From positions 1 to 45,008 of the forward strand of contig JAGDCW010000144.1 in the NCBI GenBank assembly GCA_017958305.1: a stretch of 45,008 nucleotides of DNA, read 5' to 3'. The notes under the pieces are model-generated. The model saw only the letters and a list, made by a program, of their open reading frames with translations, was not told the origin of the DNA and ran no database searches. This document shows, in pieces, positions 39,839 to 45,008 of the stretch (position 1 is its first letter; each line of letters begins with the position of its first letter). The stretch is from Bacteroidales bacterium (GTDB lineage Bacteria; Bacteroidota; Bacteroidia; Bacteroidales; UBA1402). The position numbers and the translations under genes were made by a program.

Positions 39839-41743
39839 ATGGATATCTATCACGAAATACTGAAGAAGTATTGGGGGTATGATGCCTTCCGGCCTCTGCA
39901 GCTGGATATCATCCAATCGGTGGCGGCCGGCCGCGACACCCTGGGTTTGATGCCTACGGGCGGCGGCAAATCGCTTACTTTCCAAGTGCCTGCCCTGGCC
40001 ATGGACGGCCTCTGTCTGGTGGTCACCCCCCTGGTGGCCCTGATGAAGGACCAGGTGGAGCGGTTGCGGGAGATGGGCATCCGGGCCGCTTGCATCCATT
40101 CGGGCTTGAGCCAGGCCGAGATCATCGAGACTTTCGACAATTGTCTCTACGGCGACTACAAGTTCCTCTATATTTCTCCCGAACGACTGGCCACCCGCCT
40201 GTTTCTGGAACGTCTTCCGGCCTATTCGGTGAGCCTGCTGGTGGTCGATGAGGCCCATTGCATTTCGCAGTGGGGCTATGATTTCCGTCCTTCCTATCTG
40301 GAAATTGCCCGCATCAGGGAGTTGCTCCCCGCAGTGCCGGTGCTGGCCGTCACGGCGACGGCTACGCCCGAAGTGGTGGCCGACATCCAGCAGCGGCTGC
40401 ATTTCCCCGAGCCCAATGTGTTCCGTGTCAGTTTCGAACGCAAGAATCTGGCCTACGTGGTGCGTCAGACCGAAGACAAGGACAAGCAGTTGCTGGGCTG
40501 GCTGCAGAACGTGCCAGGCACGGCCATTGTCTATGTGCGTATGCGCAGCCGCACCCGCGAAATCGCTTCCTTATTGAAGAAGAACGGCATTGCGGCCGAC
40601 TACTATCATGCCGGCTTGAGCGAGGAAACCAAGAACGCCCGGCAACTGGCCTGGAAGAGTGGTCAGACACGGGTCATCGTCTCGACCAATGCCTTCGGCA
40701 TGGGTATCGACAAGGCCGATGTGCGCCTGGTGCTGCACTACGACCTGCCCGATTCGCCGGAAGCCTATTTCCAGGAGGCCGGCCGCGCCGGCCGTGACGG
40801 CAAGAAAGCCTATGCTGTGCTGTTGTTCCACAAATCGGACGCCACCCAGCTCAAACGCCGCGTGGGCGACACCTTCCCCGACAAAAAATATATCCGCAAG
40901 GTCTATGACAGCCTGTGCTATTATTATGAACTGCCTGCCGGGGCAGGCGAGGGCTTGAGCCGCATTTTCGACCTGGCGGATTTCTGTACGCATTTCCACT
41001 TGAACGCCAATCAGGCTTTCGGCTCGCTCAAGATACTGCAGCAGGCCGGCTATCTGGAATATACCGACGAACAGGATACGCATTCCCGCCTGGGCATCAC
41101 CGTGGGCCGCGACGAACTGTATCAGCTGGAGCTGGACGAACCGACCGATGCCTTGCTGCAAACCCTTTTGCGCTCCTATCCGGGCCTGTTTGCCGACATG
41201 ATCCCCATCGAGGAGTCTGTGCTGGCCCAGCGCGTGGGCTGCAGCCGCGAGCAAGTGTATCACGGCCTGAAAAAACTGTCTTCCTACGGGGTGCTGAACT
41301 ACCTTCCCCGCCGTACCTCCCCGCTGGTCACTTTCACCCGCGACAGGGTGGAGGGCAAGGACCTGCGCCTGGGATCGGAGGTCTATGAGGTGCGCCGGCA
41401 GCGTTTCGAGGAACGCATCTCGGCCATGGTGGAGTATGCTTCGGACAACAGCGTCTGCCGCAGCCGCCGGCTGATGCATTATTTCGGCCAGCAAAAGGCC
41501 GCCAACTGCCACCAGTGCGACGTCTGTCTCAAAAAGCAGGGCCGGCTGCGCCATTACGAAGTGGAGGAAATCTCCGAGGCGATTCTGGCCGCCTTACGCG
41601 AAAAACCACTCTCGCTCGAGGCCCTCATTGACGGCCTTCAGTCTGATTCGGAAAAAAGCCTCGAAGTGCTCCGCCTCCTTGCTGAGCAGCACCTCGTCTG
41701 CGAAGAGAATTTCCTCTATTACCCCTGCGATAAAGATAAATAG
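39839..41743 (+). CDS. recQ: RecQ-family ATP-dependent DNA helicase (no evident HRDC)
   Basis: MPTGGGKS, YISPERL, VDEAHCISQWGYDFRP, TATAT, YHAG, TNAFGMGIDK, QEAGRAGRDG, Zn site CRSR...CHQCDVC. Confidence 0.95.
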   Translation: MDIYHEILKKYWGYDAFRPLQLDIIQSVAAGRDTLGLMPTGGGKSLTFQVPALAMDGLCLVVTPLVALMKDQVERLREMGIRAACIHSGLSQAEIIETFDNCLYGDYKFLYISPERLATRLFLERLPAYSVSLLVVDEAHCISQWGYDFRPSYLEIARIRELLPAVPVLAVTATATPEVVADIQQRLHFPEPNVFRVSFERKNLAYVVRQTEDKDKQLLGWLQNVPGTAIVYVRMRSRTREIASLLKKNGIAADYYHAGLSEETKNARQLAWKSGQTRVIVSTNAFGMGIDKADVRLVLHYDLPDSPEAYFQEAGRAGRDGKKAYAVLLFHKSDATQLKRRVGDTFPDKKYIRKVYDSLCYYYELPAGAGEGLSRIFDLADFCTHFHLNANQAFGSLKILQQAGYLEYTDEQDTHSRLGITVGRDELYQLELDEPTDALLQTLLRSYPGLFADMIPIEESVLAQRVGCSREQVYHGLKKLSSYGVLNYLPRRTSPLVTFTRDRVEGKDLRLGSEVYEVRRQRFEERISAMVEYASDNSVCRSRRLMHYFGQQKAANCHQCDVCLKKQGRLRHYEVEEISEAILAALREKPLSLEALIDGLQSDSEKSLEVLRLLAEQHLVCEENFLYYPCDKDK

Positions 41744-41812
41744 GGTTGTTGTTTCTAAGTTGTTGTAATTAATGTCCTTAGTTTGATTTTGTATGATTAT
41801 TTCAGAAATAAT

Positions 41813-41844
41813 TTTGTTATTAATACAATAATCTATTACCTTTG
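41813..41844 (+). promoter_or_regulatory. Sigma-A promoter of higBA with overlapping palindromes
   Basis: TTTG (41813-41816), 20 nt, TACCTTTG (41837-41844). Palindromes ATTATTTC-A-GAAATAAT (41796-41812) and TATTAATA (41818-41825). Confidence 0.75.
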
Positions 41845-41851
41845 CCCTTGT

Positions 41852-42145
41852 ATGAGAGTTATAGCTATTTCTACTCTTCGAGATTTTTGGATTAATCATC
41901 CGGAAACAAAGTTGCCGCTAAGCGAGTGGTATGTGAAAACGTGCAACGCTCATTGGCAATCGTTGTTAGACATGAGAAAGGATTTTAATTCTGTAGATTA
42001 TGTTGGGAATCAACATTATGTCTTCAATATTAAGGGTAACAATTATCGATTGGTAGTAGCGATCAAGTTTATGCCGGAGTTGGTGTATATACGATTTGTT
42101 GGGACTCACGCTGAGTATAGTAAAATTGATGTATCAAAGATATAG
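41852..42145 (+). CDS. higB: Type II toxin HigB (RelE superfamily mRNase)
   Basis: Start at ATG 41852: MRVIAISTLRDFW...VFNIKGNNYRLVVAIKF...YIRFVGTHAEYSKID (97 aa); toxin-first order. Confidence 0.93.
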   Translation: MRVIAISTLRDFWINHPETKLPLSEWYVKTCNAHWQSLLDMRKDFNSVDYVGNQHYVFNIKGNNYRLVVAIKFMPELVYIRFVGTHAEYSKIDVSKI

Positions 42146-42152
42146 AGAATTA

Positions 42153-42515
42153 ATGGCACAAATTAAGGACGAAAGACAGTATAAAGCGATGCTTTCAAGA
42201 ATCGACACGCTTTTTTTTGAAACCGATGAACAGACGCCTTCGGACGATCCGCGTTTATTGGAACTGGACCTTTTATCCGCGCTTGTGGAGGAATACGAAA
42301 AAGAGCATTTTCCCATTGAAACTCCTTCTCTTTCTGCAACCATGAAAGCGCGGTTGTCAGAGTATCATTTGACACAAAAGGAACTGGCTGCTATGTTGGG
42401 TATGACGGCTCCTCGGCTTAGTGCAATTCTAAGTGGTAAAGCTAATCCTACTTTTGAGCAGGCTAGGATTATTTCCTCTCGATTGAATATTGCGCCATCC
42501 ATTATTCTTTCGTGA
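42153..42515 (+). CDS. higA: Antitoxin HigA (XRE-type HTH)
   Basis: Start at ATG 42153: IKDERQY...ELDLLSALVEEYEKEHFPI, HTH LTQKELAAMLGMTAPRLSAILSGK (120 aa). Confidence 0.93.
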   Translation: MAQIKDERQYKAMLSRIDTLFFETDEQTPSDDPRLLELDLLSALVEEYEKEHFPIETPSLSATMKARLSEYHLTQKELAAMLGMTAPRLSAILSGKANPTFEQARIISSRLNIAPSIILS

Positions 42516-43431: not shown

Positions 43432-43947
43432 TCAGAACTTGACCTGGCGGTCTGGGGCGGAGAAGGAACTGAAGCAGGCGGTGGCGTCTGTGATGCACAG
43501 GAGGGCCATGTTGTCGTCATCGGCCTTGTACATCGACTTGAGGCCGGGGTTGCGGTCGAGGAATTCCTGCTTCATGCCGATGTCTTCGACATTGACCAGC
43601 GTGCCGCTCAAACGCATCCATTCCGTGCCCGAAGGACGCAGGGCACAGATCTCGAACTTGCCGTTTTGGGCAATCTGTTTGTAAACGTTTTTCACCTTGC
43701 CCGTCATGATGTAGAGATGACCGTCGATGATTTCGGAGACACCGAAGGGACGCACACGGGGCTGGTCGCCGTCGGCGGTGGCGATGAAGAAGGCACCGCA
43801 GTCCTTCAAGTAGGCCTGTACTTCTTGCATGTTGGCTTGTTTCATTTCTTCACTGATTGGATTGTTGTTGGGTTCTGTCGATTGTTGTTTGTTGTGGCAG
43901 GCGGTCAGCAGCAATAGTGCGGCGGCCAGGAATAATGCTTTTTTCAT
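43432..43947 (-). CDS. Pyridoxamine 5'-phosphate oxidase-like / NimC-like FMN split-barrel protein with lipoprotein signal
   Basis: MKKALFLAAALLLLTA-C signal, polar linker, then MQEVQAYLKDCGAFFIATADGDQPRVRPFG...KNVYKQI...WMRLSG. Confidence 0.82.
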   Translation of the reverse strand: MKKALFLAAALLLLTACHNKQQSTEPNNNPISEEMKQANMQEVQAYLKDCGAFFIATADGDQPRVRPFGVSEIIDGHLYIMTGKVKNVYKQIAQNGKFEICALRPSGTEWMRLSGTLVNVEDIGMKQEFLDRNPGLKSMYKADDDNMALLCITDATACFSSFSAPDRQVKF

Positions 43948-43997
43948 TGTTGTTTGTTTTGAAAATGAGGGTGTTGGCTTTACGATGCCGACAGGGA

Positions 43998-44005
43998 CAA
44001 ATATA
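43998..44005 (-). promoter_or_regulatory. -7 box TATATTTG for the split-barrel/nitroreductase genes
   Basis: CAAATATA on +, 50 nt upstream of ATG 43947. No canonical -33. Confidence 0.5.
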
Positions 44006-44065
44006 GCGAATAAATTCGTGTTATCATTTTTTTTGTCCTGTCTGCCGAAAAATATTGGATAATTG

Positions 44066-44096
44066 TTTGAGGCGGAAAAAATGTTCTCTATCTTTG
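44066..44096 (+). promoter_or_regulatory. Sigma-A promoter of the leader/aminotransferase transcript
   Basis: TTTG (44066-44069), 19 nt, TATCTTTG (44089-44096). Confidence 0.8.
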
Positions 44097-44117
44097 CACA
44101 CGCAAAACGGATCGAAA

Positions 44118-44177
44118 ATGAACAGTTTTACCTTTGCATACTTTTATTACGGCTATTACTTTAACCTCGAAGGTTAG
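44118..44177 (+). CDS. Phe/Tyr-rich attenuator leader peptide MNSFTFAYFYYGYYFNLEG
   Basis: ATG after GAAA, TAG at 44175-44177. Nine of the 12 codons from position 4 to 15 are Phe or Tyr. It lies between a promoter and a terminator. Confidence 0.88.
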   Translation: MNSFTFAYFYYGYYFNLEG

Positions 44178-44230
44178 GGCAGGCTGGCGTGTATGTGAAG
44201 GTCAAGGAGATTGCAACAACATTCAACGAT

Positions 44231-44262
44231 AAGGTCCCGCCCGAACAAGGCGGGATTTTTTT
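44231..44262 (+). terminator. Attenuator terminator
   Basis: TCCCGCC-CGAACAA-GGCGGGA followed by 7 T, immediately before the aminotransferase start. Confidence 0.9.
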
Positions 44263-44280
44263 ATGACAAATACAAGGAAT

Positions 44281-45008
44281 ATGGAAGACCCCGGAAAGGA
44301 CAACATCATGGCCGCCATCCAGCCGGCCAGTCGCTTGCAGGAACTGAGTGAATACTACTTTTCGCGCAAGCTGCGTGAAATCGCCCGGCGCAACGAAGAA
44401 GGCCAGGACATCGTCAGCCTGGGCATCGGCAGTCCCGACTGCCCGCCCTCGCCTGAGGCCGTCGGGGTGCTCTGCGAGCAGGCACGGCGCAGCGACACCC
44501 ACGGCTATCAGCCCAACAACGGCATGAAGGAGTTGAGACAGGCTTTCGCCGCCTGGTACGGACGCTGGTACGGTGTGACGCTCGATCCCGAGCGGGAAGT
44601 GCTGCCGTTGATGGGTTCCAAGGAAGGGGTGTTGCATGTGTCGATGGCCTTCCTCAATCCCGGCGATGGCGTCTTGATCCCCAATCCCGGCTATCCGACC
44701 TACCGCGCCGTGAGCAAGCTCCTTCAGGCCCGCATCGTCGAATACGACCTTGACGAACAGCAGGCTTGGTGGCCCGATTTCAAGGCCTTGGAAGCCATGG
44801 ACCTGAGCGGTGTCAAGCTGATGTGGGTCAATTACCCCAATATGCCCACCGGGGCGCCGGCCAGCCGGGAACTTTTCGCCAGGATCGTTGATTTCGGCCG
44901 CCGGCACGGCATCGTCATCGCGCACGACAATCCCTACAGCTTCATCCTGAACGATCGGCCGTTGAGCATTCTTTCGACAGAGGGTGCCAAAGATATCTGT
45001 ATCGAACT
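44281..45008 (+). CDS. PLP-dependent class I/II aminotransferase, probably aromatic amino acid pathway (runs off the window; not in the ORF track)
   Basis: Manual translation: MEDPGKDNIMAAIQPASRLQELSEYYFSRKLREI...VSLGIGSPD...HGYQPNNG...LMGSKEG...NPGYPTY...WVNYPNMPTG...HDNPYSFILN. In-frame alternative starts at 44263 and 44308. Confidence 0.9.
   Translation, partial: MEDPGKDNIMAAIQPASRLQELSEYYFSRKLREIARRNEEGQDIVSLGIGSPDCPPSPEAVGVLCEQARRSDTHGYQPNNGMKELRQAFAAWYGRWYGVTLDPEREVLPLMGSKEGVLHVSMAFLNPGDGVLIPNPGYPTYRAVSKLLQARIVEYDLDEQQAWWPDFKALEAMDLSGVKLMWVNYPNMPTGAPASRELFARIVDFGRRHGIVIAHDNPYSFILNDRPLSILSTEGAKDICIE

Follow-up and report, generated by a model that had tools for sequence, protein, structure and literature searches.

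Transcription of the E. coli pheA operon is attenuated by translation of a short leader peptide, pheL. The element analyzed here, at positions 44066-44262 on the plus strand of a 45,008-nucleotide stretch of DNA from a Bacteroidales bacterium (hereafter the window), resembles that system in several respects: a short leader frame rich in codons for end products, three overlapping helices (leader hairpin, antiterminator and intrinsic terminator), a stop codon so placed that a terminating ribosome can block the antiterminator, and an operon that serves the Phe branch. It differs from pheL, which senses through Phe codons only, and whose operon content and promoter type are unlike those of the window. 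Leaders for more than one amino acid are also known (thrL, ilvL): like the element described here they place codons for several end products of a branched pathway in one leader, and unlike it they belong to other phyla. The same likeness and the same difference apply to the Phe/Tyr-encoding upstream frames that are associated with shikimate genes according to a figure legend of PMC6429828. Passages of the review PMC11802643 mention pheL-pheA attenuation and also describe the aroR-aroF system of C. glutamicum, in which mixed Phe and Tyr control codons precede a DAHP synthase operon. The likeness of aroR to the window's element is one of description: it has an F-Y-F triplet as against nine Phe or Tyr codons, and its host belongs to the Actinobacteria.

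Closer to the window, Vitreschak et al. are said to have predicted attenuators in Bacteroidetes/Chlorobi in 2004, and the Bacteroid-trp motif precedes trp genes. This motif (RF01692; PMC2864571, Table 1) is likewise a cis-regulatory leader of an aromatic operon in the same phylum; it gives no match to the stretch of the window considered here. A putative attenuator before the B. thetaiotaomicron operon pheA > hisHb > aroA-aroQ > tyrA was listed in 2005 (PMC1173090, Table 7), the entry being taken from Merino's attenuator database. It shares the operon and the order with the window's element and, because B. finegoldii and B. rodentium carry an attenuator of the family defined below before pheA, it is very probably the same element as that of the window family. 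The attenuator structure in PMC1173090 is a prediction, given with no 'leader', Phe/Tyr frame, covariation or distribution, and the window's lineage differs from B. thetaiotaomicron in that pheA is no longer in the operon. According to passages of PMC9723704, pheA is preceded by a structured 5' element in Flavobacterium psychrophilum as well as in other Flavobacteriaceae; its authors note clues that amino acid operons are subject to leader-peptide attenuation, and they obtained no match in Rfam. The bacteria belong to the same taxonomic class as that of the window and the gene is the same, and the passages in question contain no analysis of Phe/Tyr codons.

Among the Rfam leader families, Thr_leader came closest to the stretch (E = 0.14), its 21 bits falling short of the gathering score of 55; Phe_leader and all other leader families were absent at E≤10, and nothing in the whole window reached a gathering score. 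The kind of attenuator is classical, and the window's element belongs to this known kind without having an Rfam family. An earlier note on this DNA knew of no experimentally characterized Phe/Tyr attenuator in Bacteroidetes, and our literature search likewise found no experimental study of one in Bacteroidota (the leader may be listed in the supplementary material of PMC9723704 and PMC7366714); the novelty thereby implied was overstated in view of PMC1173090, PMC9723704 and PMC6429828.

The promoter, helices and terminator that the earlier note had placed in the window were all found on reading the letters and folding the RNA. The promoter consists of a −33 element TTTG (44066-44069) separated by a 19-nt spacer from a −7 box TAtcTTTG (44089-44096, of the TAnnTTTG type), a pair which we take to be of the Bacteroidota −33/−7 type; the −7 box ends 21 nt upstream of the leader ATG, and the start site is predicted only. 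A TAnnTTTG consensus is also named in a passage of PMC9723704. A simple promoter scan recognized no sigma-70-type promoter at the site, the consensus of the scan not being that of Bacteroidota. DNA contigs from three other studies span 43950-44330 or more, with zero differences inside 44066-44262, and they bear out the junction of the leader with the aminotransferase gene; among the runs listed as containing 43950-45008, none is of RNA.

The leader frame starts with the ATG at 44118 and ends with the TAG at 44175-44177 (19 sense codons), as read from the letters and the list of open reading frames. The four Phe and five Tyr codons attributed to it were all present; only the coordinates of the frame had to be corrected, to 44118-44177. 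Phe is encoded exclusively by TTT (4 of 4 codons, compared to 30% in the long frames of the genome) and Tyr by TAC, TAT, TAC, TAT and TAC, such that 9 of the 19 codons, all within codons 4-15 (44127-44162), specify one or the other: a short frame rich in product codons thus stands at the 5' end of the predicted transcript. The 1.98-Mb assembly contains 25,464 ATG frames with 10-45 codons, and the leader comes first when these are ranked by Phe/Tyr density. A density of at least 7 Phe or Tyr in 12 residues is reached by only 2 of these frames, with the leader at the top (9 in 12). The second dense frame, on contig C88, was rejected as a chance occurrence, as it overlies the terminator of a long gene. 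That the leader frame itself might have arisen by chance, or might encode a small hydrophobic peptide with an independent function, beside an ordinary terminator is a notion invited by its length of merely 19 codons and by the T-richness of the region, but we regard it as scarcely credible: besides the rarity of such a density, neither the length of the peptide nor its residues outside the Phe/Tyr run are conserved among relatives, and the terminator lies between the promoter and the first gene of the operon. The gene upstream of the leader is divergent, and the terminator therefore cannot serve it.

The predicted structure of the region 44100-44265 is considerably more stable than expected by chance (z = −3.77; none of 200 shuffles folds equally well). 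In the minimum free energy (MFE) fold the leader hairpin is closed by a 12-bp basal helix between 44130-44141 (region 1) and 44191-44202, with 10 Watson-Crick and 2 G-U pairs and a duplex energy of −15.8 kcal/mol (shuffles: −10.0 ± 2.5; 2% of them equal it). The apical hairpin spans 44159-44179, with a helix between 44159-44167 and 44171-44179. This helix contains the local hairpin (44162-44167/44171-44176) singled out in the earlier note, which is therefore present in the fold; as an element in its own right it did not hold up, because the tip (44162-44176) varies among relatives and, on this comparison, merely forms the changeable end of the larger leader hairpin and is not conserved separately from it. 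The intrinsic terminator (44235-44262), which separates the leader from the first structural gene, comprises a 7-bp G+C-rich stem (5' arm 44235-44241, or region 3; loop 44242-44248; 3' arm 44249-44255, or region 4; −14.7 kcal/mol) followed by a T7 run (44256-44262); every aligned relative likewise has a T run after the hairpin. A simple terminator scan flagged a hairpin on the minus strand and none on the plus strand, where the T run can probably be drawn into the stem and so escape the scan. The candidate antiterminator strand (44173-44183, region 2) pairs at 9 of 11 positions with its predicted partner 44236-44246, and its core, GGGCAGG (44177-44183), overlaps the leader stop codon. In the window, where the A concerned is at 44181, and in the sister genome G006 the core contains an A-C mismatch (GGGCAGG versus CCCGCCC), while the cores of other genera are perfect or have G-U pairs only; the mismatch weighs against the reading of the element proposed below.

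On the strength of these features and of the folds described below, the element is very probably a ribosome-mediated leader-peptide transcription attenuator of the trpL/pheL type. Translation of the leader, termination in vivo and a dual response to Phe and Tyr are properties that we infer from the sequence and the folds. Transcription would start a few bases past the −7 box, and the 19-codon leader would be translated while the RNA is being synthesized. With ample charged tRNA-Phe and tRNA-Tyr, the ribosome would reach the stop at 44175-44177 and cover the antiterminator strand at 44173-44183; the 12-bp basal helix would close behind it, the terminator (44235-44255 with the T7 run) would form, and RNA polymerase would halt ahead of the aminotransferase gene. 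If either tRNA were poorly charged, the ribosome would stall within codons 4-15 and prevent the leader hairpin from closing over its 5' half; the antiterminator strand, thus released, would then pair with the 5' arm of the terminator as this emerges, such that no terminator would form and the operon would be transcribed. In the absence of a ribosome, the leader hairpin would sequester most of the antiterminator strand and termination would be favored. The most likely outcome is that the attenuator raises expression of the aromatic operon when Phe or Tyr runs short.

Folds of 44100-44265 with and without a masking ribosome, of the kind proposed in the earlier note, agree with this scheme, with the exceptions given below. 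In the window the antiterminator pairing 44173-44183/44236-44246 appears with the ribosome on codons 9-15, and with the ribosome on codons 14-15 the pairs are identical to those originally proposed; 7 bases of the terminator 5' arm are paired upstream in the stalled state versus 0 with the ribosome at the stop. The same calculation was carried out for 48 copies of the attenuator, taking the last codon of the main Phe/Tyr cluster as the stall site. At least 5 bases of the terminator 5' arm are predicted to pair upstream in 48 of 48 copies with the ribosome on this codon, and in 5 of 48 with the ribosome at the stop, in keeping with the suggestion that a ribosome at the stop blocks the antiterminator and that stalling frees it; the shuffle control for the former count is weak, as 57% of shuffles likewise pair the G+C-rich arm. 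Without a ribosome, 46 of 48 copies (mean z = −2.34) have at least 4 of 9 antiterminator bases paired to leader codons, which places the control codons in the strand that pairs with the antiterminator (helix 1:2). The homologue of the basal helix does better than shuffled sequences (p≤0.05) in 32 of the 48. When the full-length transcript of the window is folded in the stalled state the terminator still wins (−14.7 versus −13.9 kcal/mol for the antiterminator duplex), and the corresponding MFE structure keeps the terminator in 36 of 47 copies, a count in which the stall site is mis-set in 8 rows. Thus, in these models thermodynamics alone do not yield the switch, and kinetics would have to decide. 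When the transcripts are truncated ahead of the 3' arm, antiterminator pairs form without any ribosome in 35 of 47 copies: in the predictions the leader hairpin does not fully lock the antiterminator strand.

Covariation was studied with an alignment of 49 rows (A2) that had not been fitted to the antiterminator helix. Its antiterminator columns, homologous to the 9-of-11 pairing of the window, have 82.8% of their cells paired, compared to 74.5% in shuffles (0 of 500 shuffles reach the observed value), and 47 cells changed on both sides, compared to 16; controls in which the pairing was slid give 31-50%. For the terminator, 96.6% of the cells of the family alignment are paired, with 63 double changes, and all 9 pairs have compensatory changes. 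Antiterminator and terminator both covary, and they are mutually exclusive, as 44173-44183/44236-44246 occupies the 5' arm of the terminator. RNAalifold applied to the first alignment recovered the terminator only; the alternative helices were tested with named structures and alignment-free folds. In A2 the leader hairpin of the window is two columns out of register with that of other genera.

Terminator/antiterminator pairs are also known from leaders controlled by proteins and ligands, and this precedent would favor a switch that needs no translation of the short frame and responds instead to a protein, tRNA or small molecule. Such a switch appears very improbable here: none of the Rfam families, riboswitches and T-boxes included, attains its gathering score, the leader ATG is conserved just downstream of the promoter box, and the Phe/Tyr-rich frame is, besides the helices, the only feature conserved at all phylogenetic depths. 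Moreover, the position of the stop varies across the family, and yet always lets a terminating ribosome cover the antiterminator.

The distribution of the element points in the same direction as the ribosome-mediated attenuator. An orthologous aminotransferase is present in 18 relatives, of which 17 were examined at this locus (G003 was left out). A Phe/Tyr-rich leader followed by a terminator precedes the orthologous operon in all 17, directly before the aminotransferase in 5 and before a pheA that precedes the aminotransferase in 12. A covariance model (R1) with the terminator as its only structure was built from 18 sequences, including the window, which matches it at full length with 109.3 bits, a score to be read in light of that inclusion. 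R1 matches were found in 50 of 151 genomes sampled across the order (E≤0.001), and all 26 new same-order loci examined from these matches have a Phe/Tyr-rich leader. In a sample of the phylum, matches occur in 35 of 151 genomes (E≤0.01). The best 15 loci from other orders of the class all have such a leader, followed by a pheA-like gene in 14 cases and a DAHP-synthase-like gene in one; 4 of 4 weak matches examined outside the class (L099, L100, L102, L105) have none. Independent support for the family consists of the 26 and 15 loci found after the model was built, and these related genomes are kin, such that the counts of loci are not independent of each other. Of 44 related loci, 39 have a TAnnTTTG box at a distance of 14-48 nt upstream of the leader ATG, and 20 of these 39 also have TTTG in the −33 position. 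Leader, promoter box, terminator and antiterminator strand thus recur across order and class, as does the combination found in the window of an R1 match, a Phe/Tyr leader and an aromatic-pathway gene downstream. The conservation of upstream Phe/Tyr frames looked for in relatives was amply found, and on this comparative evidence the Phe/Tyr attenuator is real and widely conserved, not a chance pattern. Noviherbaspirillum and an Oscillospiraceae MAG were also seen to have Phe/Tyr leaders, again ahead of DAHP-synthase-like frames; the design therefore recurs outside the Bacteroidota.

The first structural gene under the attenuator encodes a class I/II aminotransferase (Pfam PF00155, E = 9e-31), with no NCBIfam model above its cut-off; it occupies 44263-45008 and is cut by the end of the contig. 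The remainder of the operon is on contig C123, with the C-terminus of the aminotransferase, a DAHP synthase/chorismate mutase and a prephenate dehydrogenase; the sister genome G006 has the same operon content, and in the window's lineage pheA has been relocated elsewhere. The idea that the relocated pheA has kept a Phe-only leader was discarded, as no leader is present in G006 or in 4 genomes of the neighboring genus; in G000, the contig carrying pheA begins inside the gene.

It is a separate question whether both amino acids are effectively sensed. On balance, we believe that this operon is probably under leader-peptide attenuation to which the Phe codons and the Tyr codons both genuinely contribute. 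The same attenuator might sense one amino acid only, most likely Phe, with the Tyr codons retained for pairing: UAU and UAC alternating with UUU would supply the A and C that pair to the strand after the stop. Two observations agree with this possibility. The Tyr/Phe codon run does pair, in the predicted leader hairpin, with a strand that includes the antiterminator; and the aroR leader of C. glutamicum, with its F-Y-F triplet, increased transcription when Phe was limiting and did not respond to Tyr supply (Neshat et al. 2014, as reported in a passage of PMC11802643). Nonetheless, sensing of one amino acid seems to us rather unlikely, because none of 43 leaders has fewer than 3 Phe or fewer than 2 Tyr codons, and because the genes downstream serve both Phe and Tyr synthesis, the prephenate dehydrogenase belonging to the Tyr branch. 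Furthermore, Tyr accounts for a larger share of the Phe and Tyr codons where pheA is out of the operon (0.56, 9 rows) than elsewhere (0.42, 34 rows), a comparison that involves only about 4 independent lineages and in which one row (L068) is misclassified.

A broader reading that includes sensing of both amino acids is put forward tentatively, at slightly less than even confidence: the element may represent an old family, Bacteroidia-wide and absent from Rfam, which integrates two amino acids by means of an alternating Phe/Tyr run, whose codon mix shifted toward Tyr where pheA left the operon, and which has been duplicated in some families, so that one attenuator follows another and each has a separate leader and antiterminator/terminator pair. 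If true, this would be a natural two-input and, in places, two-stage attenuator.

For the window itself the result is mainly good annotation, of one regulatory element and of one operon split over two contigs. Its wider meaning lies in the fact that the Bacteroidia are major gut and environmental bacteria in which little of the regulation of amino acid synthesis has been worked out. With a covariance model for a defined family, hundreds of genomes could be annotated, and the family would account for long 5' leaders in the transcriptomes of Bacteroides and Flavobacterium. Bacteroidia are not known to use Shine-Dalgarno-led initiation, and for this reason an attenuator that relies on coupled translation would offer a handle on transcription-translation coupling in these organisms. 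Finally, because Phe and Tyr codons are mixed in the leader and the operon serves both branches, the element would provide a clean system in which to study the integration of two signals by one leader, a matter in which the tested precedent, C. glutamicum aroR as described in that review's passages, found just one of the two amino acids to matter.

The interval 44066-44262 of the forward strand contains, on reading 43700-45008, each of the elements (promoter, leader, helices and terminator) from which the earlier note had proposed a leader-peptide attenuator sensing both Phe and Tyr. A TTTG promoter element (44066-69) is followed, after a 19-nt spacer, by the box TAtcTTTG (44089-96); the leader frame, also in the frame listing, runs for 19 codons from the ATG at 44118 to the TAG at 44175-77, and encodes four Phe (all TTT) and five Tyr. 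A 12-bp helix is read between 44130-41 and 44191-202, a local hairpin between 44162-67 and 44171-76, a candidate antiterminator between 44173-83 and 44236-46 (9 of 11 positions pairable), and a terminator between 44235-41 and 44249-55, with seven T after it. A class I/II aminotransferase (PF00155 by domain match), cut by the contig end, starts at 44263 on the same strand. The upstream gene (43432-43947; frame listing and domain match), encoding a pyridoxamine-phosphate-oxidase-like protein, is on the minus strand, and therefore the terminator is not its own. No plus-strand terminator or promoter was flagged at the leader site by a simple rule-based scan, a miss explained by the rules of that tool: the stem extends into the T run and the consensus of the scan is that of sigma-70.

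The leader stands out from the rest of its assembly (1.98 Mb, 82.5% complete, 57% G+C), of which the window is one complete contig of 45,008 bases. Among 25,464 ATG frames of 10 to 45 codons only two have at least seven Phe or Tyr (F/Y) within 12 residues, and the leader, with nine, is the densest of all; the other, which overlies a terminator, was rejected as a chance occurrence. TTT accounts for 30% of the Phe codons in the long frames of the genome versus 4/4 in the leader. DNA contigs from three other studies, spanning 43950-44330 or more, show no difference within 44066-44262, and since these independent contigs cover the region, the junction between leader and aminotransferase is not an assembly artefact. 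Farther into the aminotransferase gene (44608-44977), contigs from other samples carry more than 20 differences, mostly C/T, which represent strain variation.

The search for F/Y-rich upstream frames before orthologous operons, advised in the earlier note, found them throughout the relatives inspected. An orthologous aminotransferase occurs in 18 of 30 relatives, and a short F/Y-rich frame with a terminator after it was present in all 17 that were inspected (G003 was left out), directly before the aminotransferase in 5 and before pheA in 12. A covariance model built from 18 sequences, with the terminator as its sole structure, matched 50 of 151 genomes sampled throughout the order (E≤0.001, strict filters); all 26 new loci inspected there have an F/Y-rich leader, nearly always before a pheA-like frame. 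In the phylum sample the model matched 35 of 151 genomes at E≤0.01: the best 15 loci outside the order but within the class all have F/Y leaders, with a pheA-like frame downstream in 14 and a DAHP-synthase-like frame in one, and none of the four hits inspected from other classes has such a leader. The genomes counted are kin, so that these counts are not independent trials. A pattern scan of named genomes, with the model applied next, identified the family in Bacteroides finegoldii, B. rodentium, Phocaeicola, Paraprevotella, Tannerella, Proteiniphilum, Petrimonas and Paludibacter. In 39 of 44 loci the leader ATG is preceded, at a distance of 14-48 nt, by a TAnnTTTG box.

In six genomes belonging to other families of the order (loci L052, L055, L058, L060, L067, L068), two successive attenuators precede pheA; the two have separate F/Y-rich leaders and separate antiterminator/terminator pairs that differ in sequence. 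Two weak matches of the model in the same phylum (L098, L102) are other leader-peptide attenuators: in one, a threonine-dehydratase-like frame follows an Ile-rich leader, and in the other, a hisG-like frame follows a His-rich leader (genes named by eye from the N-terminal sequence). Three records from other phyla (L149, L181, L140) hold comparable arrangements, again with genes named by eye: an Oscillospiraceae MAG and Noviherbaspirillum galbum have F/Y-alternating leaders and terminators upstream of DAHP-synthase-like frames, and in Photorhabdus asymbiotica a pheS-like frame is preceded by a leader that is rich in F and also contains Tyr.

Covarying helices, which the earlier note had suggested looking for, are seen for both antiterminator and terminator in an alignment of 49 rows produced with the terminator-only model (one row is a spurious minus-strand terminator hit, gapped in the relevant columns). 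In the terminator 96.6% of cells are paired, with compensatory changes at 9/9 pairs. The nine antiterminator columns, which surround or closely follow the leader stop, are 82.8% paired with the terminator 5' arm versus 74.5% when shuffled, a level reached by 0 of 500 shuffles; cells altered on both sides number 47 versus 16 expected, and slid controls give 31-50% pairing. As an example, the core AGCGGGA/TCCCGCT is replaced by A-U or flipped pairs, both strands changing together. An A-C mismatch between this core and the terminator arm is found in the window (44177-44183 versus 44236-44242) and in the sister genome G006, whereas the core is matched in G007, also of this genus, and in other genera; the mismatch may lower the induced level in the lineage of the window.

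Folding of 44100-44265, also proposed in the earlier note, yields a stable structure (MFE −49.3 kcal/mol, z = −3.77, equalled by 0 of 200 shuffles), and folds with a masked ribosome footprint predict the expected switch. Ribosome-free folds from leader to terminator form one long hairpin in which the F/Y codons are paired with the strand containing the antiterminator: leader codons hold at least 4 of 9 antiterminator bases in 46 of 48 copies (mean z = −2.34), and the basal helix, the 12-bp helix of the window, is better than shuffles (p≤0.05) in 32 of 48. For the masked folds the footprint was placed on the final codon of the F/Y cluster or on the stop codon, with the RNA ending before the terminator 3' arm. 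At least five terminator 5'-arm bases are predicted to pair upstream in 48/48 copies in the former case and in 5/48 in the latter, against a weak shuffle control (57%). In the window the predicted stalled folds contain the pairs 44177-80/44239-42 and 44182-83/44236-37, with 44173-75/44244-46 in addition when the footprint is on codons 14-15; the predicted stop-codon fold has none of these pairs, and the 12-bp helix re-forms. These predicted folds agree with the classical scheme of three helices known from trpL and pheL. Antiterminator pairs still form in 35 of 47 copies in ribosome-free folds of 3'-shortened RNA. Full-leader equilibrium folds with a stalled ribosome retain the terminator (36 of 47 copies; −14.7 versus −13.9 kcal/mol in the window), and therefore any switch must be kinetic; a kinetic decision is the usual assumption for attenuators. 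Overall, the comparison of sequences supports well the interpretation of the element as a ribosome-mediated attenuator, which it very probably is.

Whether one amino acid or both are sensed is a separate matter. Each of the 43 tabulated leaders contains three or more Phe and two or more Tyr, and the operon genes act in both branches. Tyr makes up 0.42 of F+Y in the 34 rows with pheA at the head of the operon versus 0.56 in the other 9 rows (which represent only about four lineages, one row being misclassified), a shift that hints at dual sensing. Against it stand the fact that the Tyr codons belong to the pairing strand, and the case of C. glutamicum aroR (F-Y-F), whose transcription, according to a review (PMC11802643), is raised by Phe but not Tyr limitation. 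Dual sensing is plausible, and the full statement, attenuator plus dual Phe/Tyr sensing, appears moderately likely.

In G006 this leader precedes an aminotransferase (408 aa), a DAHP synthase-chorismate mutase fusion (359 aa) and prephenate dehydrogenase (257 aa). Contig C123 of the window's own assembly starts with the last 129 residues of an aminotransferase, followed by DAHP synthase/chorismate mutase (92% identity to its G006 counterpart) and prephenate dehydrogenase; synteny with G006 suggests that the two contigs join as one operon. Prephenate dehydratase (pheA), the first gene of the operon in most relatives, is located outside the attenuated operon in the genus pair of the window and in the neighbouring genus. 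No F/Y leader precedes the relocated pheA in the five genomes with upstream DNA, a count that omits the window's own assembly, where the contig begins inside pheA (C182:1-832, locus L075). The Phe-branch enzyme of this lineage is thus outside the Phe/Tyr attenuator. The relocated genes (L075, L076-L080) lie behind unrelated genes, and groES/groEL-like frames follow the copy in the window's assembly. Upstream, recQ immediately precedes the leader in the neighbouring genus, while in the window recQ (39839-41743) is separated from it by a HigB-like toxin frame (PF09907, E 3.5e-30) overlapping a helix-turn-helix antitoxin-like frame (41783-42515, plus strand) and by two minus-strand genes (nitroreductase-like and PNPOx-like).

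No Rfam family matches the element at threshold (best Thr_leader, 21 bits versus 55), and our literature search found no experimental study of a Phe/Tyr attenuator in Bacteroidota. Weinberg et al. 2010 (PMC2864571) tabulate Bacteroid-trp for this phylum and, for Actinobacteria only, a pheA motif; Song et al. 2005 (PMC1173090) take from the database of Merino a putative attenuator upstream of B. thetaiotaomicron pheA > hisHb > aroA-aroQ > tyrA, an entry that does not mention a leader; Guérin et al. 2021 (PMC9723704) describe general clues for leader-peptide attenuation and, upstream of pheA, a structured 5' element that is conserved in Flavobacteriaceae and has no Rfam hit; Ryan et al. 2020 refer, in general terms only, to some long Bacteroides 5' UTRs with leader-peptide-like short frames; and Stav et al. 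2019 (PMC6429828) report F/Y upstream frames with shikimate genes in other bacteria. The family spans the class Bacteroidia and has no curated model, and earlier publications have briefly touched on it; the element in the window is a well-defined representative of the classical attenuator type.
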